Source: an uncultured Acidobacteriota bacterium (lineage in GTDB: Bacteria; Acidobacteriota; Blastocatellia; RBC074). From it: DNA of 64,000 nt. Every line of letters starts with the position of its first letter. Position 1 is the stretch's first letter. The notes under the pieces were generated by a model. It was given only the letters and a program-made list of their open reading frames with translations, did no database searches and was not told the DNA's origin. The stretch spans positions 69,611 through 133,610 of the forward strand of contig CAVUOF010000032.1 in NCBI GenBank assembly GCA_963743045.1, read 5' to 3'. Shown here piece by piece: positions 3,518 to 54,985 of this stretch. The translations under genes were made by a program, and so were the position numbers.

Positions 3518-4481
3518 TCAGCCGCGGGCTTTCGGGGCATGATATCCCTGACGCGCGCGGATATTCAGCTTCGGGCGGTTCAACCGAACCTCGATCGCTC
3601 GCCAGCGGCCATCGCGTCGGTCATTGCTCGGCTCGTAGGTGAGTGTGTATTGATTGCGAAGCTCTTCAACCGTAAGAGTAAATGCGTCACGAAGCTTACT
3701 GCCACCCGGGGTTCGGAAAAACCGGCCGCCCGTCTTGACGCAGAACTCCTTGAGCACCTGAGCGCCGTTGTCCTGCGACCCCGTATGGTAGAGTGCGGAA
3801 TCGCTCAAATCTACAGCGTAGACTGCAATGCCGGATGCCGTAACTCTTCGAATCGCGTCCTCAAATGAATGGCGGCTTCGTGTGTCTGCGCCATCGGAAA
3901 CCAGGAGAATCGCACGTCGCTTCTCGGAGCGCTTGCCCAGGGCAGCCGCTGCGGTGAATACTCCATCGTAAAGCGGAGTCTCGCCCTCAGCCTTAAGGTC
4001 CCAGACCTCGTCGGCGACGTCGCGCAGTTCGGTGAAGTCCTGCAGCATTCTGATCTTGCTGCCGCCGAAACTGTATATCGCCACCGCGTCTCCTTCGCGC
4101 AGCCCGTTGGCAAAACGCGCGCACGCCGCGCGCGCGAGACTCATCTTCGGCCTCCATGCTGGCGCTCGTGTCGAGCAGGATAACAGCCGAAAACGGCGTC
4201 TCCTCGAAACTGAAGCTGACAATCTTCTGCGGTACCTGGTCCTCGAGAACACTGAATTCGCTCGCCTTGAGCCCGCTGACAAAACGGTCCCGCATGTCGG
4301 TGATCGTCACATTGACGACGACCACGTTCGTTTCGACCGAAATCTTGTCGTCCTCGCCGGCCTCCTCTTCCGGCGGCCGGCCCTGCGGTTTGTCGTTGGC
4401 TTTGCGAGGTGGATCCTGAGCCTCGGCTGCGGCCAGGACAATAAAGGAGAAGAGCAGCAGCAGTGTTAACCAGTACCGCAT
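3518..4481 (-). CDS. VWA domain-containing exported protein, interrupted by one apparent frameshift near 4150
   Basis: The N-terminal part (MRYWLTLLLLFSFIVLAAAEA...AVILLDTSASM) is in ORF 3993..4715. It continues in ORF 3518..4282 (RPKMSLARAACARFANGLREGDAVAIYSFGG...LLVSDGADTRS), carrying the MIDAS-like DxSxS motif. The frames switch around 4145-4158. Confidence 0.65.
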
Positions 4482-4518
4482 TCCAGGACTACAAGCACGG
4501 ACGACCGGCTTGTTGAAC

Positions 4519-5055
4519 TCAGTTGACGTAGCTCCGAATGATCTTGACCAGCTGAATAATCTCGCTTGCCTCAACGACGACCGTTGCTGAGACAACGTGT
4601 CGCGACGTCTTCTCCATGCTCGTGTTGAGCCTCTCGCCCGTGGACTTGAGCTGTTTGAGCGCGTCGTCAAGGCTGGCCGGCGGAGACTCGAGCGGGGCCT
4701 CGTCATTGGTTCCACCGAACTCCGAGCGTATCGTCTTTGCCGATTTCTCGATCTCCTTCAGTTTCTTATCGGCAGTGTGTGCGAGATGCGAACCCGCCGT
4801 ATCCTGTGCCAGCGTGTCGACTGTCTCTTTGAGCTGGGCGGCACGTTCGACGAGCTTCTTATGCTCATCCTCTTCGCGCTTGATCTCCATTCGCTTCATG
4901 TTCTCGCGAAAAGAGTCGCCCTGATCGTCCGCGGGTGATGTGGCCTGCCCCGGGGCTACCGGACCGCGCACTTCCTGCGACCAGGCAGTCGTATTCCCAA
5001 GGACCGGGAAGGCCAGAACCAGCAGGAATGCCACGATCAGACAGAGCGCACGCAT
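4519..5055 (-). CDS. Hypothetical exported coiled-coil protein
   Basis: Signal-like N-terminus MRALCLIVAFLLVLAFPVLG, followed by charged helical sequence (KRMEIKREEDEHKKLVERAAQLKE). The ORF-track start at 5139 is a TTG; I prefer the ATG at 5055. Confidence 0.4.
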   Translation of the reverse strand: MRALCLIVAFLLVLAFPVLGNTTAWSQEVRGPVAPGQATSPADDQGDSFRENMKRMEIKREEDEHKKLVERAAQLKETVDTLAQDTAGSHLAHTADKKLKEIEKSAKTIRSEFGGTNDEAPLESPPASLDDALKQLKSTGERLNTSMEKTSRHVVSATVVVEASEIIQLVKIIRSYVN

Positions 5056-5135
5056 GAGAGAAACCTGCTCTCTTCTACCATAAATCGAGTGAGGGTTAAA
5101 GAATGAGCGAGGGGTTCGGATGATCAGCCAGCGAG

Positions 5136-5702: not shown

Positions 5703-6087
5703 ATGGGACACGAACGAAAGTCTCGACGAGTTTTGAAATGATGACGCAATCCACAATAGCAGCAACAGTCATGGCCTTCAAGTTTTTTGTTGGCAACGAC
5801 AATGACTGACGCAGCCGGCAGTTTCCTTGTCTTAGCGTTCCACAGTGTTCTCGAGCTGAATTCTCGAACTCATTGTTAAATGAGGGGTTTACAATTATGA
5901 GACTATGTCAGACACATCTGACAGCAAAAGGGTAAGCAATAATTTCATAGCCACCCTTCCATTTTCGCGTAAGAATTACTCAACCAGAGACGATCTCTAC
6001 GGAGTGCGGCTTAGCCGGTCATAGAGCCTAAGCCCGTTATTTACAGTAGTTATCGAATACCTTGTCTTTGGCACCGGGATTGCCATA

Positions 6088-6121
<34 letters not shown>

Positions 6122-6174
6122 CTCCACTGACGGTGTCACGTGGTTACCAGGGTGAGGAAGGTAACCACATTAAC

Positions 6175-6217: not shown

Positions 6218-6285
6218 CCCGATTCCATCCAATCCAGCCTTGACACCCTTCCGCGCCAACGCTATGGTGCCGCCGACATAAGCCT

Positions 6286-9639: not shown

Positions 9640-11544
<1,905 letters not shown>

Positions 11545-11837: not shown

Positions 11838-13074
11838 CTACTGGAGCGAACGCCCGTTTAGGAGGCGCGGATGAAATGCGCGGCTCAGAAAGACCGAGAC
11901 CACACCCGGATCGTTCGGTCCCGAGACCTGTGAAACATTGGTCACGGCCAGGTCTGGAACGCCATCGCGATCGAAGTCCCCCGCACCTATCGTGTAGGCG
12001 CCACCCCGGGTCATGAGATTAATCCCATCCTTGAATGTTCCATTGCCCTTGCCGAGGAGGATCGTGATTCCCTTTGCCGTGCTCTGACCAATCGAGTCGG
12101 TGCTCAGGTTGGAGACTGCGATGTCGAGAATGCCGTCAAGATCGAAGTCCGCCACTGCCAACCACAAGGGGTCTCTGCCCACGGCAGGTTGTGCTGTACG
12201 AGCAAAGGCGCCGGCGCCATTTCCAAGGAATACACTGACGGTCGCGTTGACCGAGTCCGCGCTGATCAGATCAAGATTGCCGTCGTGATTGATGTCTACC
12301 GAGAGCAGGAAATGGGGCCCGGCACCGGTTGTCAGTATGGTCCCCTCTCGAAAGGTTCCGTCGCCATTTCCAAACCGGACGGCAATTGCACTGTCGTCAA
12401 GCACGGCAATCGCGAGGTCGGCTTTGCCGTCGCCGTTGAAGTCTCCGATTGCCACTGCATGGGGACGGTGGCCCGCGTCGAAGCGCGTTCCGTTGGCAGC
12501 CGAAGCGTCGAAGAACGTGCCGTCGCCGCGGCCGATGAAGATCGAGACCAAATTGCGCTCGTCTTCGGCAACAGCGAGGTCCAAGCTTACCGTCATTGTT
12601 CAGATCACCAATGGCGACGTGATGCGGTTGGAGCGAATTGACATCGTGGCCGGCGAAGAATGTGCCGTCGCCGCGCCCGAGGAGAATGGAACAGGTTCCA
12701 ACACCATAGTTGGTGACCACGAGATCGAGGTTTCCGTCGCCGTTGAGATCGCCTGCAGCAATTGAGCTCGGGTAATCGTCTGCCTGCTGCTTGCCAATCG
12801 GATAAGTGCGGGCCCTCGAGAAGATGCCGTTGCCGCCACCAAGCCGAACCACGAGCGACGGAACATATGTACTGCCGCTCGGCTGGTAAAAGTTGGTCTG
12901 CACAAGATCAGGTATCTTGTCGTGATCGAGATCGACGACAAGCAATCCATAGGGTGTATAGACCCGGTCATTGAGCTGGGTGCGCAAATAGTCGACGCCT
13001 TGTTCTGAATGTATCGCGGGATTCAGCGCGACCGCCAGACCCACGAGGGTGAGGAGTATGTACAGCTTTCGCAC
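11838..13074 (-). CDS. FG-GAP/VCBS repeat exported protein, copy A (one frameshift near 12590)
   Basis: Signal MRKLYILLTLVGLAVALNPA. Repeated DxNxDGxxD motifs (GDLNGDGNLDLVV, GDFNGDGKADLAI, DINHDGNLDLIS, DFDLDGILDIAV, DFDRDGVPDLAV). Split between ORFs 12397..13074 and 11838..12596. Confidence 0.7.
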
Positions 13075-13218
13075 GATTCATCGCTCCAGGAAGTCGCTGT
13101 TTAAATCAGCAGACCGGAAGTGGGGGATCGCCGCGAGAGGCGACCACCGGTTGATGGCCTTGCGCAGACGGGGCCAGAACATGCGGCGGCAAGAGGACCT
13201 GTTCCGGGACGAAGGCCG
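11838..13218. repeat. Segmental duplication, copy A (pairs with 30188-31569)
   Basis: Base-by-base reading shows well over 90% identity across the whole FG-GAP gene and ~145 bp upstream. Similarity stops after ...GACGAAGGCCGCCG. Confidence 0.8.
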
Positions 13219-14081: not shown

Positions 14082-14918
14082 TGGTAGCGGAATCTGCAGG
14101 TGACCGTTGCACAAATCTCTCTCGGGCCGGCAAAATGAGTTCCATTGAAGGTCTCACTATGGTCCTTCCTCGAGCGGCTGACCTCAGAATGTGAGTCGCA
14201 TTCCGAACTGAATCTGTCTCGGGTCCGCGGCTCCTGTAGGTGTCCCGAAGGCCCGCAGAGGTATCGCCCCCGTTCCGAAGGTCGCATTCGGAAGCTGCAG
14301 GTTCGAGCGATTGAGCAGATTGCGGTCGTTTCCGGTGACGATATTGAAAAGGCAACGCAGAGCCGTAGCTGAAGATGTAGCTCAACTGAAAGCCTGAGAC
14401 GGCTCGCCGCCAGAACGGCTCGCCCGCAACCGCGGTTGGACTCGAGAGCGAACCGCTGATCACAAGCCGGTGCTGCTGATCATTATCTGCCAACCCGCGG
14501 TCGTCGCGCAGATTGAAGTTATTCTGTGGAGTCGAGAAGAACTCGCTGATGTTGGCGAATCGGGGATCCGGCCGCCCAGGTGGGCGATTCCCTTCTGAGG
14601 AGCCTCTGCCGCTGAACCGTTGTAACATTGACATTGCGTGAGAGGATGACGTGAAGACTCCTGACGTAGACGTAGCCAACGGAGAGCGACGTCGACGAGG
14701 CAATCGCGCTCGAGCTGTAGGCTCGCCCGAATCGCGTAGGAGTTTTCGATATTCGGATCAATCGTCGTAATGCTCGCCAGCAACCCTGACGGAAAGGCCG
14801 ACGCCACACTCGGAAATACGGGTGCCCCCGGCTGTCCGAACGGCATCACCGCAACCCGGTACTTCGTGCCGTCGCGTTGCAGAGCATTTGATGTAGCACG
14901 CAGGGGAATGCGATCGTA
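14082..14918 (-). pseudogene. Decayed remnants of two TonB-dependent receptor genes (paralogs of 31772..33998 and 34029..36816)
   Basis: 14082-14168 aligns to the last ~28 codons of the 31772 gene. 14184-14918 aligns to the C-terminal ~340 codons of the 34029 gene (FGQPGAPVFPSV..., SLSVGYVYVRSLHVILSRNVNV, DNDQQHRLVISGSLSSPTAVAGEPFWRRAVSGFQLSYIFSYGS, ...ADPRQIQFGMRLTF*). The second block carries two internal deletions and several frameshifts. Confidence 0.7.
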
Positions 14919-14919
14919 A

Positions 14920-15163
14920 ACCTCTCCAACTCAAGTCGGCATCGTCACCCTGCTGCCGAGTTACTTACGCCGTCACCGGCGATGGCGGGCACTGCTGCTC
15001 TTCATTGCTGGGGCGTTAATGGTGCTCAGCGCGCGCCTCTATTCCTTCACTGCTAGTAAAAAAGAATCACCATTGGAACCGCCTTGTTTTAATCGGGGCA
15101 CTGCTGATTGCAGGCGCGCACCTGATCAATCGACGCCTGTGGCATGCTTGTTCGCATTGTTAA
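14920..15163 (+). pseudogene. C-terminal fragment of a MerC-domain-like small membrane protein (frameshifted)
   Basis: Reads ...VGIVTLLPSYLRRHRRWRALLLFIAGALMVLSARLY, then in another frame LIGALLIAGAHLINRRLWHACSHC*. It begins exactly at the homology break at 14918. Family call is from memory and weak. Confidence 0.3.
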
Positions 15164-15178: not shown

Positions 15179-17137
15179 TCAATGTGTTGGCGAATGTGGG
15201 AGTAGCCGGGCCGAATTGAGAATAAAGGCCAGCTCAGAAGTTACATGGATGAAGGCTGCCAGCAAGGGGTTGAGCAGCCCGAAAGCCGCCAGTCCCACCC
15301 CGATGCCATCCACGATCAACGTCCCGGCAAAATTGGTCATGATAATGCGGTGACACCGCCGCGCGATTCTCAGGGTCTCGACGAATTTTAAAAGGTCATT
15401 ACCGAGCAGCATAATGTTCGCGCTCTCACGAGCCACGTCGGTTCCAGAGCCCATCGCCACACCGACGTCGGCCTGCATGAGGGCCGGCGCATCATTGATC
15501 CCGTCACCGATCATTGCAACCTTCCTCCCTGCCTCACTGAGGGCCTGGATTCGCTCGAGCTTCTGCTCCGGAAGGAGATTCGCAGCCACCTCATCGATGC
15601 CAAGCTCCTGACCAACTGCCGCGGCGATTACTTCGACATCACCGGTTAAGAGAATCGTTCGGATTCCTGCCTGGCGAAGCGCAGAGACGGCTTCTTTTGC
15701 TTCAGGCCGAAGCACATCGGCGATCCGGAACCTCCAAGCAGCCGGCCGCCGCGGGCCACGAGAATCTCTGAGGATTGATCAGCCCCTTCAGAGTTCGGGT
15801 CTCGCGGATTCACGATAATCTGTCGCTCGTGGACGAGGCTTCGATTACCAACGACGATCTCCTCTCCCCCGACCGAGCAGATGATGCCTTTGCCTGGCAA
15901 GTAATCGAAGCGCTCCGGCTCCACCACCGGGAGCGCAGCCGCGGCGGCTTTCCTTAAGATCGCAGAGGCGACGGGGTGTTCCGACGGTCTTTCGGCGATT
16001 GCTGCCGCTTCTAATAAGTGCACTCTCGGTGACGCCGTCCACAGGACAGACTGCGATGACCTCAGGCGTTCCCAGTGTCAGCGTGCCGGTCTTGTCAAGC
16101 ACGACCGTATCAATCGTGCCGAGGACCTCGAGGTAGAGCCCTCCCTTGATGATCGCGCCCTCCCGCGCCGCGCGGCCGATAGCACCAAGAATTGCCAGGG
16201 GCGTGCCAGCCGCGATTCCGCAGGCGCCTGCGACAATCACGACCGAAATCGTAGATCGCACGTCGTGAGTGACGAGCAAGGTCAGCGCAGCGCATCCGAT
16301 GGCGAAGTAGACGAGATAGCCCGCGAGCCGGTCTGCGGTCTTCTGAATCGGCGCTCGCGATTTCTCCGCGCGTTCAACTGCCTCGATAATCTTGCCGAAC
16401 GCGGTCTCGCGCCCCAGCCCCTCTGCGCGCACCTCGATGCACGCCGGATTGATTGATGGTGCCGGCGTACACCCGCGCCCCGTCAACTTCTCAACCGGAA
16501 GCGACTCGCCCGTGATCGTCGCCTGGTCAACGAAGGAATGGCCGCGCACGACTTCGCCGTCCACAGGGACGCGTGCGCCGGGCTTGACGATCACTACGTC
16601 ACCCACCTGCATCTCTTCGAGACGCACGGCGTGCGCCTCACCAGCGCGGCGCACGAGCGCCTCTCGTGGCAGCAGATCGAGTAACTCCTTCATCGCGCGC
16701 CTGCCTCGTCCGCCGACCAACCCTTCCAAAACCTCCGCGATGAGGACAAAGAAAATGATGACGAGCGCCGTAAACACTTCGGCGATCGCCAATGCGGCAC
16801 AGATGGCGATGGTCATCGAGAGCTCCATGGTCATCCTGCGCGCGAGGAGTGATGAGAAGGCTTCTTTGAAGATTGGATAGCCGCCAATCAGCGCCGCAAT
16901 GACCCCTATCAGGCTGAGATGCGAGAACGGCTGCAGCCAGAGTGCGATGATTGCGAGACCAACGAACCCGATGCGGACCAGGTCCGATAATTCCACATGA
17001 TGCTCTTCCTGGGCGCCTTCCGCCTCGTCGTGACGCTCAGCCGTGTAGGCAACTTTGGGATTGCCGGTAGAATCCGATGTCGCGTCCACCAGAGTATTCG
17101 TCTTCGTTGCTCGAGCGTGTGCCTGATTCATTAGCAA
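15179..17137 (-). CDS. Heavy-metal (P1B-type) P-type ATPase without an N-terminal HMA domain; two apparent frameshifts (~16020, ~15715)
   Basis: ORFs 15845..17137, 15646..16023 and 15179..15715 join into one ATPase with ITGESLPVEK, DKTGTLT, MIGDGINDAPAL and VAMGSGTDVA. The TM segment has VAGACGIAAGTP where CopA/ZntA have CPC. The N-terminus is His/Glu-rich (ERHDEAEGAQEEHHVE). Confidence 0.8.
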
Positions 17138-17155
17138 ACTCCGAAGCTCTGACGA

Positions 17156-17542: not shown

Positions 17543-18392
17543 CTATGGCGACTTCTCCTTTTGCGCCTCTTTGCCACCCAGCTCGAATGTAAATTTAACT
17601 GCTGCGCCAATGCGCTCCGTCGATGAAGTAAGGCCAATCGGAATGCCAATTAGAAGTTCGGCTCTCCTTCGCGATGCGCAAGACGTAGGACGGAGTGAGA
17701 CTAACCCGGGTTTCGCTCCCGCCATTCCAGCGATCGCTGCTCACTGAGATTTCGCCGATCACCCAGCCGTGCCCGGCGTGAATAGATATGCCATTGTTTG
17801 AAAAAATAGAGTTGCGCGACGCCTCCAGCACCGTCTCCAGTCGCCGATGCCCGGCGATGAACTCGATACCTGTAGTCGAGAACAGCTGGTACTCGCCCTG
17901 GCGCAGCTCGCGCGAAAGGAGCACTGAGGGCGATACGCTGTATGTTCCCTCGCCAAGTTTCCGACCCGGATCGCCAGTCGGGACGCTGGCGTCGATGGCT
18001 ACAGCAAGATGTGTGAATGGGGAGCCGACTGCGGGCCATGTGTAACGTGCGCCTATCTCAATATCGCCCATGCCTGTCATCATTGAGCCGGTCAGGTTGG
18101 AGCTGTTTACGAGATTCACAAAGGTTGAGACTTGGAGCTGATCTGATATTCCCCATTCCAACTTCTGTGTCAGGAGGGAACTGTGCAGGACGCCGTGGCT
18201 GAAATACCATCCACCGGTTGTGAGCATCATTTCATGTCGGTCCTGTGGGACGATCGAATCGGCGAATACCAGTTCCAAAGGCAGGCGCTGTTCGAGCGAC
18301 TCCGATTGACCAAAAACATGCTGCTCAGCCAGACTACAAAGGAGCAGACATAGTAAGCAGCAAAAGAAAGAATGTGACGAGATGGTCCCCAT
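17543..18392 (-). CDS. Outer-membrane beta-barrel 'transporter' family protein (MetA-pathway-like), one frameshift near 17680
   Basis: Signal-like N-terminus with alternating beta-strand pattern. The C-terminus is restored in ORF 17543..17725 (...GIPIGLTSSTERIGAAVKFTFEL). Family call is tentative. Confidence 0.45.
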
Positions 18393-19944: not shown

Positions 19945-22464
19945 ATGACAACCAAAATGCGTTTCGTTGTGGCGGTAGCTTGTCTGCTCGGAGCGCTATC
20001 ACTTACCTGTCTGGGACAGTCGCTCTCCGCCGGTACTGTGACAGGCACAGTCACAGACCCGACTGGCGCGGTCGTGACGACTGCGACAGTGATCATTCAG
20101 AACGCGGTTACTGGCTTCCGACGGTCGACGACCACCGATAACACCGGTTCATTCCGTTTCGGCGATGTACCGCCGAATAACTATCAACTGAGTGTCTCGG
20201 CGAACGGGTTCAACACGGTCACCCAGAATCTTACGGTGCGCACATCGGTGCCGATCACGGTCAATGTCTCGCTTGCGATCGGGGGTGTCACCAACACTGT
20301 GGAGATCGCGAGTTCCGAGAGTTTAGTCGAGAGCGTTCCAATGGCGCATACCGATGTAGACCAATCACTGATTGCCCGCCTGCCTGTCCGGTCTCCGGGA
20401 TCCGGGTTGAGCGATGTGGTGGCCTTTGCCGCGCCTGGCGTTGCGGCCGACTCCAATGGGCTCTTTCATCCGCTTGGTGATCATGCGCAGACATCGATCT
20501 CATCGACAATCAGCCGATCACAGATCAGATCGAGCAAGGCCTTCTCCACGCAGCTGCCTGTCAATGCGATCCAGTCGCTTGAGGTGACTACCGGCGCCGT
20601 GCCTGGCTGAGTACGGCGACAAGACCAGTCTGATCATCAATGCGATCACGCATTCGGGCATCGGGCAGAAGCATCCGACCGGCAGCCTGCTGACCAAGTA
20701 CGGCACGTTCGGAACTCGCATACCGAGGGCACATTCGGCTTCGGGGATGCGAAAGTAGGCAACTTCATAGCCTTCAACTTTGAGGACCGCGGCCGGTTTC
20801 TTGACGCGCCGGAGATATCAGTGTTTCACGATCGCGGCACCTCGTCGAGCATCTTCGACCGCCTCGACTACAGCGTCGGCTCGAACGATACCTTCCATCT
20901 CAACGTGCTGCTGGCGCGCAACCGTTTTGAGATACCGAACACCTACGAGCAGGAGGCCCTCGGACAGGACCAGGGCCAGCAGGTGCGATCGGTCAACATC
21001 GCGCCCGGCTACGTTCACATCTTCAGTCCAACGACAATACTGACGGTCAATCCTTACTTTCGCATGGACCAGGTCTGGTACTACCCGAGCGCGAATCCAT
21101 TCTCGGATCAGACCAGACGGTCAGCCAGCAGCGACGGCTACAGAACTCGGCATCCGCGCCGACATCGCCTACACGAACGGGAGTTCACAACGCCAAGGCG
21201 GGAGTGCAGTTCTCGCACACATTCCTGACTGAGGCGTTTCAGTTTGGGATCACCGATCCGAATTTCAACGATCCTACGAGCCCCAACTTCATTCCCGGCC
21301 TGCTGCCATTCGACCTGACGCGTGGCGGGAGCCTGTTTCACGTTCAACGGCCACACCGATATCAAGCAGGTGGCGGTCTATGCGCAGGATTCGATCACCA
21401 GGGGCAACTTCACAGCCAATCTGGGACTGCGCTTCGATAACTACGCGGGCACTCAGCAAGGGACCATTTGTGGCAGCCGCGCCTCGGGGCTCGTACCTCA
21501 TTTAAAACGAACCGGGACTGTGTTGCGCGGCTCCTATAGCCGAACGTTCGAGACGCCATATAACGAAAACCTGATTCTATCGAAGCGGCCGGGGCGCAGG
21601 GCTGGGCGACGGCATACTTGGCGGTGCGAGCATTGAGAGTCTCAAGCCGGGCCAGCGACATCAATTCAATGCCGGCTTTCAGCAATGGGTTGGCAGGCAC
21701 GTTATGATCGACGCTGACTACTTCTGGAAGCGGACGCGCAACGCATACGACTTCAACGTCCTGCTCAATACGCCGATTGCTTTTCCGATCTCGTGGAACA
21801 AGTCGAAACTCGACGGGTTGGCACTGCGGGTCAATCTTATCCGACTATAAAGGGTTCACCGCATTCTTCTCGGCAGGGCACACGCGGGCGCGGTACTTCC
21901 CGCCGGAGAATGGCGGCCTCTTCTTTAACTCCGATATACCGGCAGGCGTCTTCCGCATCGACCACGACCAGGCGTTCCAGCAGACGAGCCAGGTTCAGTA
22001 CCAGTTTCACCAGTTCGGCAAGCTCCAGCCGTATGCGGCATTCAGCTGGCGCTACGACAGCGGAGTGGTTGCCGGGCCAGTTCCCGACTACGCGACCGCC
22101 CTCGGCTTCTCGCCTGATCTGCAGGCGCAGATTGGTCTCTTCTGCGGGAACGTCTTCGCGACACCCACGCAAGGTTTACGATTCGTGCACGATCCAAATC
22201 GTGGGGCGACTCGCGATTAAGATTCCGGCCGACGGAACAGCGAACGACGATCACAATCCTCCGAGGATCGCGCCGCGGCATCTATTTGATTTCAGCATGG
22301 GCACGGACAATCTGCTTCGGACAGATCACACGCGCGTGACCTTGCGGTTTACGGCAATAAACCTCACGAACAAGGAGGCGCTGTACAATTTCCTCTCGAC
22401 GTTCAGCGGGACGCACTTTGTTACCCCACGTACGTTCGCTGGACAGATAGGGATTGTTTTCTGA
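19945..22464 (+). CDS. TonB-dependent receptor with carboxypeptidase-regulatory-like N-domain; at least 6 frameshifts (possible pseudogene)
   Basis: MTTKMRFVVAVACLLGALSLTCLGQSLSAGTVTGTVTDPTGAVV...FRFGDVPPNNYQLSVSANGF. Receptor-like pieces continue through ORFs 20821.., 21204.., 21322.., 21777.. and 21793..22464. It ends ...THFVTPRTFAGQIGIVF*. Confidence 0.7.
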
Positions 22465-27300: not shown

Positions 27301-27394
27301 TCCCTGAGAGCTCTGCTGTGTTCTGTTGAGCCTTCACCATGACGCTCATACAGAATATCGCCGCAAGGCAGAGTGGTCGCTTGGTTCTTCTCAC
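24319..27394 (-). CDS. TonB-dependent receptor (carboxypeptidase-regulatory-like + plug + barrel); two apparent frameshifts (~26600, ~24650)
   Basis: N-terminal part in ORF 26531..27394 (signal, TGAIIVNAQITVRQ..GFYVFTQLPTGVYNVTVSHDGF, plug LPLNGRDIVQLA). Barrel in 24555..26645. C-terminus in 24319..24669, ending RQLQFGLKLVF*. Confidence 0.8.
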
Positions 27395-27530
27395 CGCTTA
27401 TCTCCCTTCGAAAAGGCAGATACATCGCCAATGCTGTTTGCAGGCTGCACCGCACCCGGGCCGGAGGATGGGGCACGACGTCCCCGCGCCAGGACAGCCT
27501 TAGGCCCATCATCCGTTCCCTCGGTCCACG

Positions 27531-31426: not shown

Positions 31427-31569
31427 GGTTTATCGCTCCAGGCAGTCACTGTTCAAGTCAGCGGACCGGTAGGGAGGTTCCCGCGAGAGGCGACCACCGG
31501 TTGTTGGCCTTGCGCAGACGGTGCCAGAACATGCGGCGGCAAGAGGACCTGTTCGGGACGAAGGCCGCC
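30188..31569. repeat. Segmental duplication, copy B (pairs with 11838-13218)
   Basis: See copy A. Confidence 0.8.
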
Positions 31570-36816: not shown

Positions 36817-36945
36817 ACTCCTCCGAACTTCCTCTTTGCGTCCCCTGGGACCGCAGAGAAGTGGAGATCAGCTGAATGAGCGCTGCATGAACTGTCGCTG
36901 CACGAGCGGATTCAACTCGAGCAACCTGACAGTGTCAGCGCAAGA

Positions 36946-38510: not shown

Positions 38511-40065
38511 TCATCTACGCTTCGCGGGTTTGCCGATGGCAATCTGAAAGATCGCGCTCTTGCCTGAAGCGTGCGGCGAGAAGAATTGGACCACGTAATC
38601 ATCGTAAAAAGTCAGGCCAGTGGCGCCGAAACCCTGACTGTAGGCCGCAAGATATATCTTCCCGCCGATGATCCCCATTCCAACTGAACCGCGCGATAGC
38701 CCCGATTGCCAAATTGATGCAAGATGGCGTTCAAATCGGCCAGAAAGAATATGGTCGCGCTGGCATCGGCGGGCAGGTCTTGTTCAAGGCCCAGGTAACC
38801 CGCCTCGGCACGAAAGTCTCCTTCCTTGAGCAGCTCCAGCGCCAATAGGTCGCTGTGCAGCACATACGCGCCAGGCCGCAAATCTTCAACCGCGTGAACG
38901 ATGAGATAGAGATGGTTGAGATGCATCCGACCGGCGCGAGGAAATCGGTCGGAATGGCTTGCATTGAGTGATAGAGCAAGTTTGAGAGTTGAGCGAAAGA
39001 AATCGGCTCGCGTGCAAACCGCCGCGTCGAGCCGCGCTTGAGGATCACCCGCCCGAGCGGCGCGCCCAAGCTTCGGCGCCGGTCAATGGTTTGAGAGCGA
39101 TCAACTCTGCGGTCGGCTCTGCAGATTGTTGAACCGGAGCGCCGTCGCGCCAGGCTCGCACTTCTTCCAAATCAAGGAGCGATGAGGCAGCGTGCATCAA
39201 GCGCATCGCCGGGTAATCAATCTCCTTAGGGGAGTAAGATGTACTTGCAAGTTTAGGGGTGCGATCCGCGCTGGCGCGGCCGGAGGCGGCGCGGCGCCCA
39301 GCCAAGCGGCACGATCGAAAACCCGACTTCGCGCTCGCTGTCGAGATCTAACAACCTATTCACTTCATGATCTACAAATCCCATGACAACGCGCGCCGGC
39401 ACGTTGAGCGCCGCGGCCACCGCCAGCAAATTGCCAAGGAGCGTGCCGTTGTCCCAACCGAAATGACGATAGGTGCGTGCCTGATATTTCCATGCATTGC
39501 GCCAGTAGATCGCCGAACAGACGATCGTCACGGGCGCGCTTGAAACAGACGGCTCTAACGCGGTCGCCTGAGCGAGCGCGCTGCGGTAATCGCCCTGACG
39601 CAATCGCCGGAGGGCGAAATCACCGGGATTGAAGTGGTAGATGCCTGCTTCGAGATCGGGCAGATCGCCGCAGACCAGATACAGCTCGGTCTCGTAGAGG
39701 GCTCCCGTGCACGATGCCGCGCGGAAAAGGATCTCGCCAACCGGATACGTCTTTCGCCTGGTGATTCCAGCGGAATAAAACAGAATTCGCGCAAGGTCCT
39801 TCAGATCGGGTATTACTTCTTGTTGCGGAGCGACAACCGTGGTGGAGATCGCATCGAGAGCGGCGATATCCGATAAGGGCTCCGATAAAGGCTGCAACGA
39901 GGGCATGACGCTGGGGAGCGGGATCGGATCGAGGGTGGAATAGACCTTGAACGGCATCGGCCGGTTCGGCCAATCGAGGAAGTGAGCGTTTTCGTGCACG
40001 CTTCGATACGAATGCTTTGTGCCATCGTGATATGCCCAAGCAGCCTCGAGGTCCCGATTAACCAT
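38511..40065 (-). CDS. Two-domain SagB/ThcOx-type nitroreductase-family protein; at least 3 frameshifts
   Basis: N-terminal half intact (39253..40065: AWAYHDGTKHSY...FRAASCTGALYETELYLV..WRNAWKYQARTYRHFGWDNG). The second half is spread over ORFs 39045.., 38731.. and 38612... A further frame ends GIIGGKIYLAAYSQGFGATGLTFYDDYVVQFFSP...GKPAKRR*. Confidence 0.65.
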
Positions 40066-40476: not shown

Positions 40477-41107
40477 GGCAGCCCCTACAGGCGCCCCTGC
40501 AAAACAGACCCGGTTTTTTTGCCAGCAGTTAGGCTCCATCGCAAGCTCCATTTCAGAAACCGCAGAAATAGGAGTCCCTGACCAACGCCGAAGCACAAGC
40601 TGATCAGGACGTGGGAAACGCCGGTGTGTAAGCCGGACAATCAACCCGGCCAAATAGCCTCGCAACTCCTCAATCGAAACATCGCCCGGCAGATCGACGT
40701 CGTCACCCAGTTCGATCTGGCTGAGTACCCATCCCAATTGCGCAGGCGTCAGCCCCTTGTCCTTGGTCACCGCTGCGCTGAGCGCACTCTCTAACTGGTA
40801 GCCAGCCAACTCCAATGCACGTACGTCTACGAGGTCACGTATTTCCGAGCGCGATAAGAGCGCGCAGAGTTTGTTAGCCATAATCTCCTGCGGCGGGTCG
40901 ACACGAATGCCATTGATTAGCCGCTTGTCCGGCGCCACTTGCATGACGTATTCACGGGCCAGGTCGATGGTCACCGTCATGTGCTCCTCCATGTCCCAGA
41001 TGAAAGCCGACCAGCGCAGCACCACCAGTGAGAAAGAAGCGGTCGTCGCGCCGAAAGAAAGCGCGCAGGAAATCCTGTTGCAAGGCGCTTAGTTGGTGGT
41101 TAGCCAA
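40423..41107 (-). pseudogene. Degraded AbiEii/AbiGii-type nucleotidyltransferase toxin remnant
   Basis: N-terminal frame: LSALQQDFLRAFFRRDDRFFLTGGAALVGFHLGH.... C-terminal frame: MTVTIDLAREYVMQVAPDKRLINGIRVDPPQEIMANKLCALLSRSEIRDLVDVRAL...KDKGLTPAQLGWVL. The central ~50-70 aa expected for the family appear to be missing, and the ORF tail runs into the repeat. Confidence 0.5.
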
Positions 41108-41409
41108 GCAACCCTTCCTTCCGCCAGTGACCAAACAAGAATTCCCAGAAGCCCCGCCGCCGCCCAAGCTGTGGTGCCAGAGCCGGCCAGCGGCGCCATG
41201 CTTCGGCCGGGGAAATGAAGAGCCAGACATCGGTGTCGCGCGCCTCACGCAGCAGCTTTGCCAAGAGCCGGTTCTGCTCCGGCGATTGAAGCGGTCTCCA
41301 ACCGGAGGCGGAATTGGCGCACCGTCATCGGCTCGTCCCACAGAAAGTAGGGTATTTCGTCGGGGCCGCTGAGATTCGTGGAGAGCCGTGCTCCGGGATT
41401 AGCGTGCAT
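41100..41409 (-). CDS. Small partner ORF of the nucleotidyltransferase (antitoxin-like), one frameshift near 41285
   Basis: MHANPGARLSTNLSGPDEIPYFLWDEPMTVRQFRLRLETAS, then after a shift EQNRLLAKLLREARDTDVWLFISPAEAWRRWPALAPQLGRRRGFWEFLFGHWRKEGLLG*. Its stop overlaps the putative TTG start of the downstream gene. Confidence 0.4.
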
Positions 41410-44911: not shown

Positions 44912-46620
44912 CTACAGATTGCCTCGCCTCGCTTCATCGAGAATGTAGTCACAGGCTCGAGCTGTGAGCGCCATCATCGTCAGCGTCGGATTCTGGCAGC
45001 CAATCGAAGTGAAGCAGGCACCATCGGTAACGAAGAGGTTCTTCACATCCCATGCCTGATTCCGTTTGTTGAGCACCGAGGTCTTCGCGTCAGTCCCCAT
45101 TCGCGCCGTGCCGACCTCGTGAATACAGAAACCCGGCGGGGCCAGCGTGTTGTTGACAAAGTAGGTCCTGAAGCCGGCCGCGTCCACCATCTCCCTGATG
45201 GTCTCGAGCATATCTTTGGCCATGGCGGCCTCATTGGGCCCATGCTTACATTCGACGTGCAGCACGGGAATCCCCATGCATCGACCTTCGACATATCGAG
45301 ACTCACGCGATTGTCGAAGCTCGGAAGCATCTCACCCCAGGCGCCCAACCAGAAGCCGACTTCTTTTCGGGCATCCCTGACGAACCTCTTGTATTGCGGT
45401 CCGAAGCCGGGTATCGAGTTCGCATGCGAGTAGTCAAGCCCCTGCGCGCTGTTGCCCTGCATGCCGTAGCCGCGAATAAAATCCTTGTGCTTATCCCAGA
45501 CGTTCCGGAACTTGGGAACGTAGATGCCGTTGGCTCTGCCATCCGAAAAGTCGTATTCACTCCCTTGAAGCACGGGCACGACTACCCGGAGGCGCTCACC
45601 GAGTAGATATGATCCATCAGGTAGTGGCCGAGCGTGCCTGAACTATTCCCGAGACCTGCGGGATGTATTCGCGACTTCGAATTGAGCAGAACCCGAGTCG
45701 ACTCGAGAGTCGAGGCACAAAGGACGATCACCTTGCCCGACTCCTCGTAATCGCGCTTCGTCAGCTGATCGATTACTCGTACGCCCTTTGCCTTGCCAGT
45801 ATTCGGGTCGACGACAATTTCACGGACGATTGAGTTGGGCCGAAGAGTCATCCGGCCGGTCCGTGCGGCGGCGGGCAACGTCGAGCCGGGACTGCTGTAA
45901 TACGAGGAGGTCGAGCAGCCTCGATCACAGTGGCCGCAGTAATGGCATGCGGCTCGCCCCTGGTGCGGCTTCGTCAGTATCGCGGCGCGGCCAATGACTA
46001 CTTTGCGTTTCTCGAACTTCGATTCGACCGCGCGCTTGAGAATCCGCTCGCCGCAGGTCATGGCCATCGGTGGAAGGAACCTGCTGTCGGGAAGCTGCGG
46101 CAGATTCTCGTATGACCCGGAAATCCCGACAAAGTCCTCGACCTTGTCGTAGTACGGCTCCAGATCGCGGTAGCCGATCGGCCAGTCATCTCCGACGCCG
46201 TCGCGGCTTGCCGCCTTGAATTCATAGTCCGACAGCCTGTAGGACTGGCGCCCCCAGACAACCGAACGCCCGCCCACCTGCCGCGATCGAATCCACCAGA
46301 AGGGCTTCTCTTCAGGTGTTGTGTAGGGATTGTCTATGTCGTCTACGAAGAGATGATGGCCGTACTCATTGGCGGCATAGCAGCGGCTTTGAATCGGCTG
46401 CCGCTCCTTGAAGATCGTCGAGGGCTCAACCAGGCCCCGGTATTTCACTTCGTATGGCCAGGTGTGCTCGCCGAAAGTCCTTCTCCGGGTCGAGTTGGCG
46501 GCCCGCCTCGAGCACCAGCACCCTCATGCCGCCTTCGGTGAGCACTTTGGCCGCCCAGCCGCCGGTTGCGCCGGAGCCGACGACTATTGCGTCGTAATTC
46601 GAGGTTTGCGCTCTACCCAT
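44912..46620 (-). CDS. GMC-family FAD oxidoreductase; at least 3 frameshifts
   Basis: N-terminus [32 protein letters not shown] (46426..46620). Middle parts in 45582..46448 and 45043..45579. C-terminus HEVGTARMG...[29 protein letters not shown] (44912..45277). Confidence 0.75.
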
Positions 46621-47299
46621 ACTCTTAGCCGGCAGGATGAGGGCTTCTTCGGGCGATTCAGAAGTTGAAGTATCCCGGTCCCACTTTCAGTACCATGCAA
46701 CCACGCCCGTGGGAAACTGTGCGCCAGGACAACAGCCAGTATAGTATGCGAAAGCGACACCGTGAAGAGATTAGGATGGCGCTGGAAGAGGCGGCACCAG
46801 ACGAACCCAATGATCCCGGTCAGGAGTGCCAGAGGCGGATTCGGCAAGTGCAAGAAGGCAAAGACCCCAGCCGATGCGAGTGCAGCGGTACGCGGGTTGC
46901 GGAAAGACCTGAGACATTCGCTGGAGAACAAAGTCCTGAAGAGCATATTGCTGGACGAGAGCCCAGAAGAAGATCCATGGAAAGCGCCTCGTCTCCCAAT
47001 CCTCTATCGGACGCAGCGTGCCGAGAAGCCAGCCTGTTCCCGCTAAGACAATGAAGACGATGACGGTCGCGGTGCCTACCTCAAAGACTGACTCGAGGAG
47101 ATTGTCGGCGCGAAAGCCCAGGCCGCGAGCCCCGTCTGCGTGGGTGAAGTTTGAGGCTGCTACGAAGAGGATGCCTCCACCAATGACCGTCCAGAGCGCT
47201 CCCGGAAAGCTGCCCTGCCAGATCCGACATGTAGCTCTCGAGTAGGAACGCGAAGCCGGCAACTTCGAGAAGCGCGATGGTTTTGCGGTCAAGTGCCAT
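46584..47299 (-). CDS. CPBP-family (CAAX/Abi) intramembrane glutamic protease; 2-3 frameshifts, 3' end uncertain
   Basis: Pieces [40 protein letters not shown] and [51 protein letters not shown] sit in three frames. The EExxxR-like and FxxxH motifs are typical of the CPBP family. Confidence 0.55.
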
Positions 47300-47353
47300 G
47301 AGCCCATGATACACGCCCAACCGAGCTAAGGGTAAAGACTCTCCAAGGCAATT

Positions 47354-48533: not shown

Positions 48534-50102
48534 ATGAGCAATCCGTGGCAGCAATTCGAAAATAGCGTGTGCCTGATACCTTCCGTCGATCTCATGCTCG
48601 ACATCTCGCACATGGCTTTTGAGTCGGATTTCTTCGAACGGATGAAGCCGAAGATCGAGAGCGCGTTCAAGGCCATGGCCGAGCTTGAGCGCGGGGCCAT
48701 CGCCAATCCTGACGAAAAACGAATGGTCGGCCACTACTGGCTGCGCGCGCCTCAGCTCGCACCAACCGCTGAGATCAGCAGAGAGATCGAAGAGACAGTC
48801 TCCCGGATCAAGTCGTTTGCCGCCGATGTCCATGCAGGAAGGGTGCGGCCGCCCAACGCCGATCGATTCACGCAGCTCATCTCGATAGGGATTGGCGGGT
48901 CGGCGCTGGGTCCGATGTTCGTTCATGACGCACTCGGGAATGCGGCGCTGGATTCGATGTCGGTCTCGTTCATCGACAACACCGATCCCGACGGAATCGA
49001 GCGCGTACTCAGGAACATCGGGCCGCGACTAAATCAGACACTCTGCGTAGTGATCAGCAAGAGCGGGAGCACACCGGAGCCTCGCAATGGCCTCATTTGT
49101 GCCTCTGCCGCTCTGAGAGATGCGGGCCTCGACTTTGCCAGGCAGGCCGTGGCGGTGACTGGCGAAGGATCACAGCTCGACCAGCAGGCTGCCGCCGAGG
49201 GATGGCTGGCGAGGTTTCCGATGTGGGACTGGGTAGGTGGCCGGACCAGCGAGTTCAGCGCCGTTGGCCTCGTACCGGCGGCTCTCCAGGGCCTCGACGT
49301 GGATAGTCTGCTGGCAGGCGCCGCGGCATGCGACGAGGCGACGAGAATACCGGAGGTCGAGCGCAATCCGAGCGCTTTGCTGGCACTCATGTGGTATCAC
49401 GCGACGGACGGCCGCGGCCTCAAGGATATGGTGGTTCTGCCGTACAAGGACCGCCTGCTGCTCTTCAGCCGCTACCTGCAGCAGCTCGTCATGGAATCCC
49501 TGGGGAAGAGGCTCAATCTGAAGGGTGAACGGGTCGATCAGGGGATCGCTGTCTACGGCAACAAGGGATCGACCGATCAGCATGCTTACGTGCAGCAGCT
49601 TCGGGATGGAGTCAACAACTTCTTCGTGACCTTCATTCGTGTTCTTGAATCGGGAGGAACGGGGCTCCAGGTCGAACCGGGAGTGACGCCCGGTGACTAC
49701 CTGCATGGCTTCCTGCTGGGAACGCGAGCAGCGCTCTTCGAGAACGGTCGTCAATCAATCACCATCACCATCCCTCGGGTCGATGCGCGGAGTCTTGGCG
49801 CGCTGATCGCGCTCTTTGAGCGAGCGGTCGGATTCTACGCATCCCTCATCGGCATCAACGCCTACCATCAGCCGGGCGTCGAGGCGGGAAAGAAGGCTGC
49901 GGCGGCAGTTCTGGCACTGCAGAGCCGAGTCGTTTCGGCGCTCAGCTCAGAAGGACGTACAGCTCAGCAGATCGCCTCAGCAATCTCAGGAGAGACGTCT
50001 CCCGCGACTGTCTTCTATCTGCTCGAGCATCTCGCATCGAATGGCCGGGCGAGAGTAGTCTCTCCGGGACTGCCTGGGGCAAAAACCTTTGCATCGGTAT
50101 AG
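48534..50102 (+). CDS. pgi: Glucose-6-phosphate isomerase
   Basis: 522 aa, intact. Contains [26 protein letters not shown] and [15 protein letters not shown]. Confidence 0.9.
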
Positions 50103-50114
50103 CCGAATTCGCTG

Positions 50115-51644
50115 ATGAGGTTTCCAAGGTCAAGCGGAGTCCTCCTTCACCCGACCTCGCTACCGGGGCGTTTCGGCATGGGCGATCTTGGTAAGGAGGC
50201 CTATCGTTTCGCCGACTTTCTCGCGGCATCGAAGCAGCGCATCTGGCAAGTGCTGCCGCTCACACCAACCGGCTACGGCAATTCTCCGTATCAATCTCCT
50301 TCCGCTTTTGCCGGCAATCCGTTGCTGATCAGCCTCGACAGCCTGCTTGACGAAGGTCTCCTGGAACGAGGGGATCTGCCGGAGCTTCCCGATTCGAATC
50401 CCGGCGAGGCTGCCTTTGAAGAGGCGGCAGCATACAAGCTGCCGCTTTTGCGGCGCGCTTATGAGCGGTTTCACTCTCGAGGCCAGGCATCCGACTTCCT
50501 GGAGTGGACATCCCGGGAGAAGGGATGGCTCGATGACTACTCGCTCTATTTCGCTCTTAAGCAGGCGCATGGCGATCGCGTCTGGACTGAATGGGAGTCC
50601 GGCGTAGCGGCGCGCGATCCTGTGGCAATGACGAAATGGCGGGCCAGGCTCGCGGATGAGATCGAGGGCATCGCAAATTCGAGCAATTCATCTTCTTTCG
50701 CCAGTGGAATCGGCTGAAGACCTACTGCCGGGATCGCGGCATCTGCATGTTCGGCGATCTTCCAATCTATGTAGCGCACGATAGCGCCGATGTCTGGTCA
50801 CATCCTGACCTGTTTTGCCTGGATGCCGAGGGGCAGCCGACATCTGTCGCCGGCGTGCCCCCGGACTATTTCAGCGCTACGGGGCAGTTGTGGGGAAACC
50901 CGATATACAACTGGTCGAAGATGTCAGCGGACGGCTTCAAATGGTGGATTGAGCGAATTCATCAAACGCTCGGCGTGGTGGACATCATTCGGCTCGACCA
51001 CTTCCGAGGGATCGAGGCCTATTGGGAGGTGCCTGCCGGTGAGACCACGGCAGTCAAGGGGAAGTGGGTTAAGGGGCCGGGTGCTTCGCTCCTGGCGGCG
51101 GCGGAGCGGGTGCTCGGAGAGTTGCCGATAGTCGCAGAGAATCTCGGAGTGATTACACCTGAAGTAGAAGCGATTCGAGGGCAGTTCAGCTTTCCGGGTA
51201 TGGCCGTGCTCCAATTCGCTTTCGGTAACGACGCTCAGGCTTCGAGCTTTCGACCTCACAATTACGATCGGAATCTGGTGGCTTATACCGGGACTCACGA
51301 CAACGACACGACAGTCGGATGGTGGCGGAGCTCGGGAAGCCAGGCTAGTACGAGGACGGAGGAGGATATTCGCAAGGAACGTGAGACTGCTCGGTGAGTA
51401 TCTCAACCTGGATGGACGGGAGGAACAGATCAGCTGGGCGTTCATTCGCGCAGTGATGGCGTCGGTGGCCGATACGGTTGTCATTCCGCTGCAGGATATT
51501 CTTCTCTCTCGATAACGCGAGCACGAATGAACCTGCCGGGCTCCGCCGGAGGCAGCAATTGGCGATGGCGGTTTCGGGCGGGAGATGATAACTCCGGAGA
51601 TCACGCATAAGCTGGCTGAGCTCACCACGCTGTACGGCCGCTAG
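50115..51644 (+). CDS. malQ: 4-alpha-glucanotransferase (amylomaltase); at least 2 frameshifts (~50700, ~51400-51500)
   Basis: RSSGVLLHPTSLPGRFGMGDLG..., WQVLPLTPTGYGNSPYQSPSAFAGNPLLISL, GDLPIYVAHDSADVW, IRLDHFRGI and YTGTHDNDT. The tail ends ...LAELTTLYGR* at 51644. Confidence 0.85.
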
Positions 51645-51782: not shown

Positions 51783-51866
51783 GAATGTCTTTCCAAGTTG
51801 GTCGCCTTCAACTAATATTCGCAGGCTGTTCTACCATTCCTGAAGAGAGACGGGAGACCCGCTCAG

Positions 51867-53588
51867 ATGCCGAACATCCAGCTGAGTTTTATCGATTACC
51901 TGATCCTCGCAGTCTACTTCGCCTTCGTTCTTGGAATCGGCTGGGCGCTCAAGCGCTACATGAAGAGCAGCAGCGACTTCTTTCTCTCCGGCCGCTCGAT
52001 CCCGGCCTGGATCACCGGCCTGGCCTTCATCTCGGCCAATCTCGGCGCGCAGGAAGTCATCGGCATGGGCGCCTCCGGCGCGAAGTACGGAATCATGACC
52101 AGCCACTTCTACTGGGTCGGCGCGATTCCGGCGATGGTCTTCGTCGGCATCTTCATGATGCCGTTTTACTACGGCTCGCAAGTCCGCTCGGTGCCCGAGT
52201 ATCTCAAAGCTCCGGTTCGACGAAAAGACCCGCGGCTTCAACGCGATCTCCTTCGCCGTGATGACCGTCTTCTCCTCCGGCATCTCGCTGTATGCGATGG
52301 GACTGCTGCTCGACGACGCTGCTCGGATTGGGACTTTCACTTCAGCATCTTAGTGTCGGCCGTGATCGTGCTGGTTTATATCTTCCTCGGCGGCCTCACC
52401 TCGGCGATCTACAACGAAGTGCTGCAGTTCTTTCTGATCGTGTTCGGCTTTGCTGCCGCTGGTGTTCCTCGGCCTGCGGGACGCCGGCGGCTGGGCGGCC
52501 TGCACAAGCGCCTCACGACTGTCGCTACCTCGAATGGTTTCGCCGCCGGTGCCTGGTCTCATTCCTGGGACATCTTAGGCTCAGCTTCGGCAAACCCGAT
52601 GGGCGTCGAATGGTTCGGTATGGTGATGGGCCTGGGCTTTGTCCTCTCCTTCGGCTACTGGTGCACCGACTTTCTGTCGTGCAGCGGGCCATGGCAGCCG
52701 ACTCGATGTCGGCCGCGCGCCGGACGCCGCTCATCGCCGCCATCCCCAAGATGTTCTTCCCGTTCCTCGTCATCCTGCCGGGCATGATCGCGATCGCCTT
52801 GACGTACAACAGTCGGCCAAAGCGGATTTCGCAATCTGCCCAAGAAGCCCGACGGCAGCGTTCAACTACGATCTTGCCATTCCGACTCATGCTCGGCCAT
52901 TACTTCCCCAGCGGAATGCTCGGCATCGGCCTCACCGCGCTGATGGCCACCTTCATGTCGGGCATGGCCGGCAACGTCACGGCGTTCAACACCGTTTGGA
53001 CCTACGACATTTATCAGGCCTACATCAAACCGACGTGCCAGCGACCAGCACTACTTTGGATGGGCCGGATGGCGACGGTCTTCGGCATCGCGCTCTCGGT
53101 GGCGGCGGCGTACGTGGCGCACGCAGTTCAACAACATCATGGACATGCTGCAGCTGGTATTCGCGTTCGTCAACGCGCCGCTGTTCGCGACATTCCTGCT
53201 CGGAATGTTCTGGAAGCGAACGACCGGCCACGGAGCTTTCTTCGGCTTGCTTTCGGGCACGATTGCTGCGGCCATCCACCACGGCTTGTCGCTTCCTGCT
53301 GGTGCGCGGTACGGCATCAAAGGAGGTTGGATCGCACCTCACTATCCTACCCGAGCGAAATGGCTCAGAACTTCTGGACGGCAATCTGCGCATGGACCAC
53401 TTGCTTCATCGTCACGATCGTGGTCAGCCTCATGACCAAGCCACGTGACGAGAAAGAGCTCGTCGGACTGGTCTACTCGCTCACGGAGAAGCCGCACGAT
53501 GACGCAACGAACGTGGTATCAACGGCCGGTCACGCTGGGCGTGGTCGTGCTCGTGATGGCCGTGGCGCTGAACATCATCTTCTGGTAA
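51867..53588 (+). CDS. Sodium:solute symporter (SSS/SGLT-like, probably sugar/galactose); roughly 9-10 frameshifts
   Basis: MPNIQLSFIDYLILAVYFAFVLGIGWALKRYMKSSSDFFLSGRSIPAWITGLAFISANLGAQEVIGM.... Family-typical pieces (FHFSILVSAVIVLVYIFLGGLTSAIYNEVLQFF, AARRTPLIAAIPKMFFPFLVILPGMIA, GMLGIGLTALMATFMSGMAGNVTAFNTVWTYDIY, MLQLVFAFVNAPLFATFLLGMFWKR) alternate among all three frames. Confidence 0.8.
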
Positions 53589-53599
53589 GGGGAGGCTGC

Positions 53600-53923
53600 A
53601 TGGGGCTGGACATACGACTGCCGATTGGACTCCTGTTTTCGATCTTCGGAATTCTGCTGCTCGCTTATGGACTCGTTAGGCCGGCTGAGACTCAGAAGTC
53701 ACTCGGCCTCAACGTCAATCTCGAGTGGGGCGCGGCGATGCTCGTCTTCGGCGCTGTCATGCTTTTCTTGGGTGGCGAGGTCACACTGCGGCTCGACGAC
53801 GCCCACCGGACGAGCTCCACGAAAAATGATCGAGCCCTCCGCAATTCAGGAAGAGTTCAGCGAACTCTTTGGAAGCCCATCACGAGTCTTCCGGGCGCCC
53901 GGCAGGGTCAATCTGATTGGTGA
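53600..53923 (+). CDS. Small two-TM membrane protein downstream of the symporter (3' end uncertain)
   Basis: RBS AAGGGGAGG, then [59 protein letters not shown].... The open frame overlaps the galK start, so the true stop may have been lost to an indel. Confidence 0.35.
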
Positions 53924-54985
53924 ACACACCGACTACAACGACAGGTTTTGTCATGCCGGCGGCAATTGAGTTTGCGACGTTGATTGCCGCGGCGCCGCGG
54001 CTCGACCGACGCCTCGTGGTTCGATCCGAAGCCTTCGCGGATCAGATCGATGTCGACCTCGATCATCTCCCCACTCTGCCCAGGAAACACTGGAGCGATT
54101 ACGTTCTCGGCGTAGCACACCTGCTGGAACTTAGCGGGCTCAAACTCACTGGAGCCAATCTGCTCGTCCGGAGCGACCTGCCGATCGGAGGCGGTCTCAG
54201 CTCGTCAGCGGCGATCGAGATTGCCACGGCCCTGGCGCTGCTCGGGGTGTCGGAATAGCAGCTGGACCGGCTCACAATTGCCAGAATCGGGCAGCGCGCC
54301 GAAGCTGAGGCAGCCGGCGCTCGCGTCGGAGATCATGGATCAGTTTGTTTCCTGCTTCGGTGTCCGTGGCCACGCACTGGCGCTCGATTGCCGCTCCCTG
54401 GAGTTCGAGGCCGTGCCGATTCCTGCCGACGTCGCGCTTGTCATTTGCAACACCATCGTCAGGCATGCGCTGAGCGGTGGCGAATATAACCAACGAAGGG
54501 CCGACTGCGAAGAGGGAGTGCAGGCAATGCAGGCTGTTCTTCCCGGGATCACGGCGCTGCGCGACGTGACTATGCGAGATTTGGAAGAGCATCGCGAGCT
54601 CGTCTCGGAGAGAGTCTACCGCCGCTGCCGGCATGTGATCAGCGAGAACGCGCGCGTGGGTAAGGCGGCCGAGGCACTGCATCGTGGCGATCTATCTGCC
54701 TTCGGCCAGTTGATGGCCAAATCACATCACAGCCTTCGCGACGACTATGAGGTGTCGTGCCCGGAGTTGGATGTCATGGTCGAAGCTGCGCAGCAGATCG
54801 ATGGCTGCCTGGGCTCACGCATGACCGGCGGAGGCTTTGGTGGGTGCACCGTCAATATTGTCTCGGCAGACGCCGTGAGTTCGTTTCGAGATCAAATGAG
54901 CCGGGAATACAGCCAGGCGACTGGGAGGATTCCTGAGATATATGTCTCGGCGGCGGCTGAGCACGCGGGTGAGTTGCGCATATGA
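53826..54985 (+). CDS. galK: Galactokinase; two frameshifts (~53940, ~54260-54330)
   Basis: [39 protein letters not shown], then [12 protein letters not shown]...[16 protein letters not shown], then ...[17 protein letters not shown]. These are the GHMP kinase motifs. Confidence 0.85.

Follow-up and report, generated by a model that had tools for sequence, protein, structure and literature searches.

The stretch of DNA considered here raises a simple question: have its genes, many of which are interrupted by shifts of reading frame, decayed in the organism, or have they been damaged only in the assembly? The window, by which we mean the whole stretch of 64,000 nucleotides (nt) analysed, corresponds to G000:C32:69611-133610, where G000 is the assembly of an uncultured acidobacterium whose named nearest proteins point to the Pyrinomonadaceae/Blastocatellia (Acidobacteriota); the part examined for frame breaks is 3518-54985 (51.5 kb). 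The first-pass annotation of this DNA had favoured consensus errors while leaving room for relaxed selection, and its preference is upheld by the analysis reported here. The frame breaks are very probably single-base consensus errors in an error-rich draft metagenome-assembled genome, rather than a biological feature, and the organism most likely carries these genes in intact form. The whole case rests on comparative evidence: breaks of the same kind occur genome-wide, the essential gene rpoB is hit, and the proteins obtained by reading through the breaks show no excess divergence.

The breaks were located by aligning intact orthologous open reading frames (ORFs) of relatives to the window with our own frameshift-aware, protein-to-DNA dynamic-programming aligner, in which shifts of 1-2 nt are permitted. 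The coding strands were also scanned against Pfam in all three frames, stops being treated as X; in these scans single families pass from one frame to another at adjoining profile positions. Plain chaining of tblastn high-scoring segment pairs gave too low a number of breaks in dense patches, and a codon-usage Viterbi frame tracer found many switches but labelled the regions with the heaviest fragmentation as non-coding; the frameshift-aware, orthologue-guided alignment was used instead of both. The closest comparison genomes belong to other genera, and their DNA identity to G000 is just 65-77%. With this approach 57 frame breaks were located in the stretch, and about 6 more are indicated by other evidence (24676 and 26532 in a TonB-type receptor, 46464 in a GMC oxidoreductase, 41286 in a small antitoxin-like gene, ~54258 in galK, and at least one in a CPBP protease), for a total of about 60. 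Thus, the disruptions noticed at first reading exist, but their number, put at about 40, was an undercount; in particular, an ATPase credited with 2 breaks contains 4, and a sodium:solute symporter credited with about 10 contains 14. The seven sites that had been named individually are all recovered with an offset of at most 16 nt: 4150 is located at 4151, 10565 at 10563-10567, 11298 at 11306-11308, 12590 at 12583, 15715 at 15731, 16020 at 16021, and 52206 at 52206-52211. Likewise, all the genes that had been listed as intact (aroB, DHS, tatC, pgi, galT, gpmA-like, S9 peptidase, patatin-Omp85) are so.

The G000 assembly comprises 4.78 Mb in 33 contigs, with a GC content of 58%, a marker completeness of 78%, and a contamination of 2%. 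Very few, long contigs together with low completeness are what one usually sees when a long-read assembly has genes split by indels, and G000 looks like an assembly of this type. The occurrence of breaks outside the window was determined by aligning the ORFs from 400 kb of the relative G005 to the whole assembly, and by considering as conserved the genes with at least 55% identity. Among these, 31 of 80 (39%) are broken, with 40 events in 96.9 kb (0.41 per kb) distributed over 14 contigs; rpoN, hflX, ppk1, glgC, PFOR, ubiB, and fdhA are all included. When the same procedure was applied as a control to 18 other relatives, only 8 events were found in ~134 kb (at most 0.06 per kb), the majority of them close to the N-terminus of the query ORFs. 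In G007, a relative with a comparable assembly profile (30 contigs, 82% complete), the sampled genes are broken 1.8 times per kb. An ORF-length index calculated in 2-kb bins shows a median longest ORF of less than 250 amino acids (aa) in 20% of the bins of G000 versus 9% of those of G005, but this fragmentation index was too blunt for mapping patches genome-wide.

The gene rpoB is single-copy in G000, as every match falls at C22:140553-144843, and it contains eleven 1-nt insertions and one 2-nt insertion, all within the 1.3 kb of C22:142635-143932. The first 2.1 kb of the gene are clean, and so is the adjacent 4.3-kb rpoC (1457 aa, 87% identical). An uninterrupted frame of 1461-1485 aa encodes RpoB in G005, G003, and G011, and the read-through of the G000 gene is 86% identical to the RpoB of G005. 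The breaks in rpoB are a hot patch of the same type as those recognized in the window, inside a gene that the cell cannot lose; because the same defect shatters an essential gene, the breaks are best explained by consensus errors, not by gene decay. A separate observation concerns G007 (for instance at G007:C24:166843-171291), which shares this defect to a greater degree, with at least 15 frame breaks in its rpoB.

Gene decay might be considered in view of the functions affected in the window. Breaks concentrate in transporters, receptors, and catabolic genes, which are potentially dispensable, and true truncated remnants are found nearby (a receptor C-terminus at 14187-14927; fragments of insertion sequence (IS)-like and AbiEii genes at 37-41 kb), so that one could think of genes truly inactivated by frameshift mutations under relaxed selection. 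Besides the 12 insertions of rpoB and the 39% of conserved genes broken genome-wide, with rpoN, hflX, and ppk1 among them, this form of pseudogenisation is contradicted by the state of the encoded proteins, whose similarity to homologues had been described as otherwise undamaged. This description is borne out by the read-through identities, which match those among orthologues. For the SSF sodium:solute symporter (51846..53588, plus strand), three orthologues share 79-82% identity with the read-through and a fourth shares 74%, the range among these four being 74-85%; the read-through is 567 aa long, which is the modal length of the family, and can be aligned end to end with hundreds of intact 567-aa proteins, at identities of up to 89%. 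For speA, encoding arginine decarboxylase (9643..11544, minus strand), the corresponding values are 79-84% versus 77-88% among orthologues, and for a nitroreductase-domain gene (38514..40065, minus strand) 67-72% to two orthologues versus 70% between those two. An absence of accumulated stops had also been claimed: it holds for the 40 genome-wide events outside the window, among which there are no nonsense codons, whereas the window itself contains two doubtful candidates, of which one is ambiguous and the other lies within a truncated fragment.

The size of the indels points in the same direction. All those that break a frame are of 1 nt, rarely of 2 nt, while the remaining indels with respect to the orthologues are of 3, 3, 3, 3, 6, and 24 nt; since these are all multiples of 3, selection has filtered the real indels, but not those of 1 nt. 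Furthermore, the inserted bases are mostly not of the slippage type, and the borders of the patches cut through genes, such that in both malQ and galK one half of the gene is affected and the other is spared. On these grounds we consider genuine pseudogenisation highly improbable as the origin of the breaks.

The sequence context of the breaks also bears on their origin. It had been suggested that they occur often at short homopolymers, but this is not supported by the data: 31 of 105 events (30%) have a run of at least 3 identical bases no more than 4 nt away on either side, versus 23% of random positions in the same genes (p = 0.09), and no event among the 105 is located at a run of at least 5. 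One example given for this tendency was the GGG at 10565-10567 in speA: the break is real, but the homopolymer is not its site, as intact orthologues share the GGG and the extra base aligns at 10563. The DNA of the symporter was aligned with two intact genes found on short metagenome contigs (84% identity for the closer one); in this comparison 8 of the 10 inserted bases are unlike both neighbours, and the same is true for ~8 of the 12 insertions in rpoB. Insertions that are mostly unlike their neighbours fit random read-error insertions, and not replication slippage. Because the homopolymer bias is at chance level and the inserted bases differ from their neighbours, the error profile is of the random-indel type rather than of the homopolymer type. 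Overall, there are 66 extra bases versus 39 missing ones; among the raw-read profiles presented in the proovframe preprint, one long-read chemistry has insertions severalfold in excess of deletions (10.1101/2021.08.23.457338), in keeping with the pattern in G000.

The mere existence of +1 and -1 shifts, and nothing more, might bring to mind programmed recoding, in which ribosomal frameshifting or transcriptional slippage would restore the frames in vivo. A single gene would then have to accommodate up to 14 shifts of both signs, there is no slippery motif common to the sites, and at every site the orthologues are in frame. The alignments effectively refute this idea, to which we assign a negligible probability.

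Breaks are not spread evenly. A uniform rate is strongly contradicted by the counts per gene (chi2 = 116, df = 26, p = 2e-13); in 500-nt bins the variance/mean ratio is 2.2. Strong clustering by gene had been noted at first reading; the clustering is confirmed, but it is not gene-wise, as it takes the form of regional patches that cross gene borders. Four hot patches can be recognized in the window, at 14.6-16.5 kb, 20.5-22.2 kb (14 breaks), 38.7-39.3 kb, and 50.7-54.3 kb. They are 0.6-3.7 kb long and contain ~6-8 indels per kb, versus ~0.4 breaks per kb in the rest of the window. The last of them (50668-54331) spans the 3' half of malQ, the entire symporter, and the 5' half of galK, while its flanks, in pgi and galT, are clean. 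The sole repeat within a patch is a palindromic element of 135 bp at 51646-51783. These features are best accounted for by a background error rate of ~0.4 per kb throughout the genome, on which local hot patches are superimposed, the latter probably being places where read support was too little or too heterogeneous when the consensus was built or polished; some genes therefore come out riddled with breaks next to clean neighbours. The local excess may plausibly stem from dips in coverage or from heterogeneity among strains.

If heterogeneity is given more weight, one arrives at a mixed explanation, in which most breaks are still assembly errors, but the hot patches correspond to heterogeneous or strain-variable segments, that is, to flexible islands. 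The functions hit by the patches are indeed typical of accessory genes (a TonB-type receptor, the malQ-SSF-galK sugar-uptake cluster, a metal ATPase), and both low abundance and localised heterogeneity within a population are reported to impede the polishing of a metagenome consensus (10.1101/2021.08.23.457338). However, one hot patch is inside rpoB, which is core rather than accessory, and patch borders ignore gene borders. We regard this mixture as rather unlikely; if it were true, the distribution of assembly errors would indirectly show where microdiversity is concentrated along the genome of this uncultured, Pyrinomonadaceae-like acidobacterium.

Some observations sit uneasily with consensus errors as the explanation of all the breaks, and must be weighed against it. 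The GC content is flat, so that no GC shift lies behind a patchiness of more than 10-fold. Paralogue collapse, which had been put forward as a cause of the clustering, can be ruled out for the symporter, the worst gene, because it has no paralogue of at least 65% DNA identity in the genome. The direction of the errors is one-sided in some patches, with insertions in 12 of 12 cases in rpoB and deletions in 5 of 5 in the nitroreductase-like gene. An intact allele of the symporter from the same species was not found among 5.8 billion proteins, the best match being 89% identical. Finally, truncations that we judge genuine share the window with the breaks, so that a minor fraction of the latter may be real.

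We now turn to the individual genes, beginning with those on the minus strand. The VWA-domain gene (3521..4523) has 1 break, due to an extra base at ~4151; four orthologues place this +1 shift at 4151-4154. In speA there are 2 breaks, an extra base at 10563-10567 and a missing base at 11306-11308, both supported concordantly by the proteins of five orthologues and by the DNA of four (75-77% identical). The two FG-GAP copies are paralogues with 93% DNA identity: copy A (11841..13077) has an extra base at ~12583 relative to copy B, the paralogue DNA alignment showing a 1-nt indel where copy A shifts frame, and copy B (30142..31429) has an extra base at ~30807 relative to copy A. The two copies break at different sites, and where one is broken the other stays in frame. 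The P-type (E1-E2) ATPase (15200..17155) is broken at 15731, 16021, 16442, and 16485, and these same four events are placed by most of six homologues, one of which is a paralogue from the same genome. A conserved gene of unknown family (17573..18359; orthologue 66% identical) has 1 break at 17669. The nitroreductase-domain gene has single-base deletions at 38676, 38926, 39069, 39242, and 39294, and the small antitoxin-like gene (41103..41385) is broken once, at ~41286. There are 3 breaks in the GMC oxidoreductase (44915..46596), at 45269, 45583, and 46464. In the CPBP (Rce1-like) protease (46584..47325), whose Pfam domain and N-terminal ORF are in different frames, at least 1 break is present near 46900, this position being approximate.

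The four TonB-type receptors contain 14, 2, 1, and 1 breaks, respectively. The first (19969..22461, plus strand; CarboxypepD_reg and OMP_b-brl_4 domains) includes the hot patch with ~14 breaks between 20495 and 22176, and is 63% identical to its G013 orthologue after read-through. The other three are on the minus strand. One (24322..27403) is broken at ~26532 and ~24676, and positions 1-45, 47-723, and 725-838 of PF25183 are spread over its three frames; another (31775..33974; orthologue 58% identical) is broken at 32780, and the last (34032..36840) at 36087, by an extra T. On the plus strand, pgi (48546..50099) and galT (54982..55989) are intact and border the genes affected by the patch at 50.7-54.3 kb. 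Among these, malQ (GH77; 50106..51641) has 4 breaks (50668, 51395, 51505, 51581), with positions 1-169 and 171-461 of the GH77 profile in two frames; the symporter has 10 one-base insertions and 4 one-base deletions, 14 indels in all, from 52211 to 53506; and galK (53823..54973) has 3 breaks (53943, ~54258, 54331). The Pfam matches of speA, galK, the GMC oxidoreductase, both FG-GAP copies, and the symporter are similarly split over frames.

The presence of real truncations near the breaks, which had been pointed out in the first-pass annotation, is confirmed. The clearest is the C-terminal remnant of a TonB-type receptor on the minus strand (14187..14927), which matches only residues 720-1056 of its orthologues and has 80-83% DNA identity to window positions 34007-35040; in addition to being genuinely truncated, it has ~3 breaks (14578, 14616, 14705). 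It belongs to a segmental duplication relating 11831-14919 to 29685-35040, in which the locus at 11.8-14.9 kb is a partial duplicate of that at 30.2-36.8 kb, with the receptor reduced to its C-terminal third. The identity between duplicates is 93% for the FG-GAP genes, 80-83% for the receptor C-terminal pieces, and 89% for a 290-bp piece (18894-19182 versus 29685-29973). The region at 37-41 kb contains pieces of an IS-like, multi-copy gene and of a toxin-antitoxin pair of the AbiEii type. All these truncations are losses of a structural kind, distinct from the 1-nt breaks, and leave the verdict on the latter unchanged.

Several other elements of the window were also noticed. The palindromic element between malQ and the symporter (51646-51783) is a GC-rich repeat of ~135 bp with 393 blastn matches on both strands genome-wide; it is also present in the relatives G009 and G013, and it looks like a repetitive extragenic palindrome (REP) or a miniature inverted-repeat transposable element (MITE). 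Another repeat of ~300 bp, with palindromic arms, is found at 7459-7779; it has 89 blastn matches in the genome, and its best copies are 85-91% identical. Between the VWA operon and aroB there is an element of 150 nt (6066-6218, plus strand). It occurs once in G000, but at least 12 relatives from other genera carry it with 84-90% identity, and these frequently have 2-5 copies each. Its predicted fold is strong, with an energy of -72.5 kcal/mol (z = -4.4), and its 3' end is a GC hairpin followed by a U-run, as in an intrinsic terminator. An Rfam search of the window gave no matches, and none for this element even at E<=1; we consider it a candidate for an unclassified conserved small RNA of this acidobacterial family. 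The G000 assembly as a whole contains one homopolymer run of 28 nt, the next longest being of 8 nt.

In practical terms, our results are a warning about data quality: about 40% of the tested conserved genes of G000 appear to be split by errors. Until the assembly is polished or its frames are corrected, its gene calls, pseudogene counts, completeness, pangenome analyses, or analyses of nonsynonymous versus synonymous change (dN/dS), and any claim of split or truncated genes derived from it are unreliable. The same caution applies to the relative G007, and findings from G000 that are based on ORF boundaries need to be reread accordingly.

These observations can be compared with two kinds of known systems. 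Genomes undergoing decay, such as those of Mycobacterium leprae or of recently host-restricted lineages, are rich in pseudogenes and resemble the window in having many genes interrupted by frameshifts. They also contain nonsense codons, larger deletions, and a raised level of non-synonymous change, while their essential genes are intact; none of this applies to G000. A much closer likeness is with the indel errors of long-read (meta)genome assemblies, which reportedly were described as a cause of frameshifts by Watson and Warr in 2019 (Nat Biotechnol) and by Arumugam et al. in the same year (Microbiome). There are two differences: the indels of G000 are not concentrated in homopolymers, whereas residual nanopore errors typically are, and they are strongly patchy, with a local excess of more than 10-fold. 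In other respects the resemblance is strong: marker completeness is only 78% despite very few, long contigs; insertions outnumber deletions; and the breaks can be corrected by alignment to orthologous proteins. As in the long-read (meta)genomes that the protein-guided corrector proovframe is designed to treat (10.1101/2021.08.23.457338), single-base indels split conserved genes into collinear ORF pieces throughout the genome.

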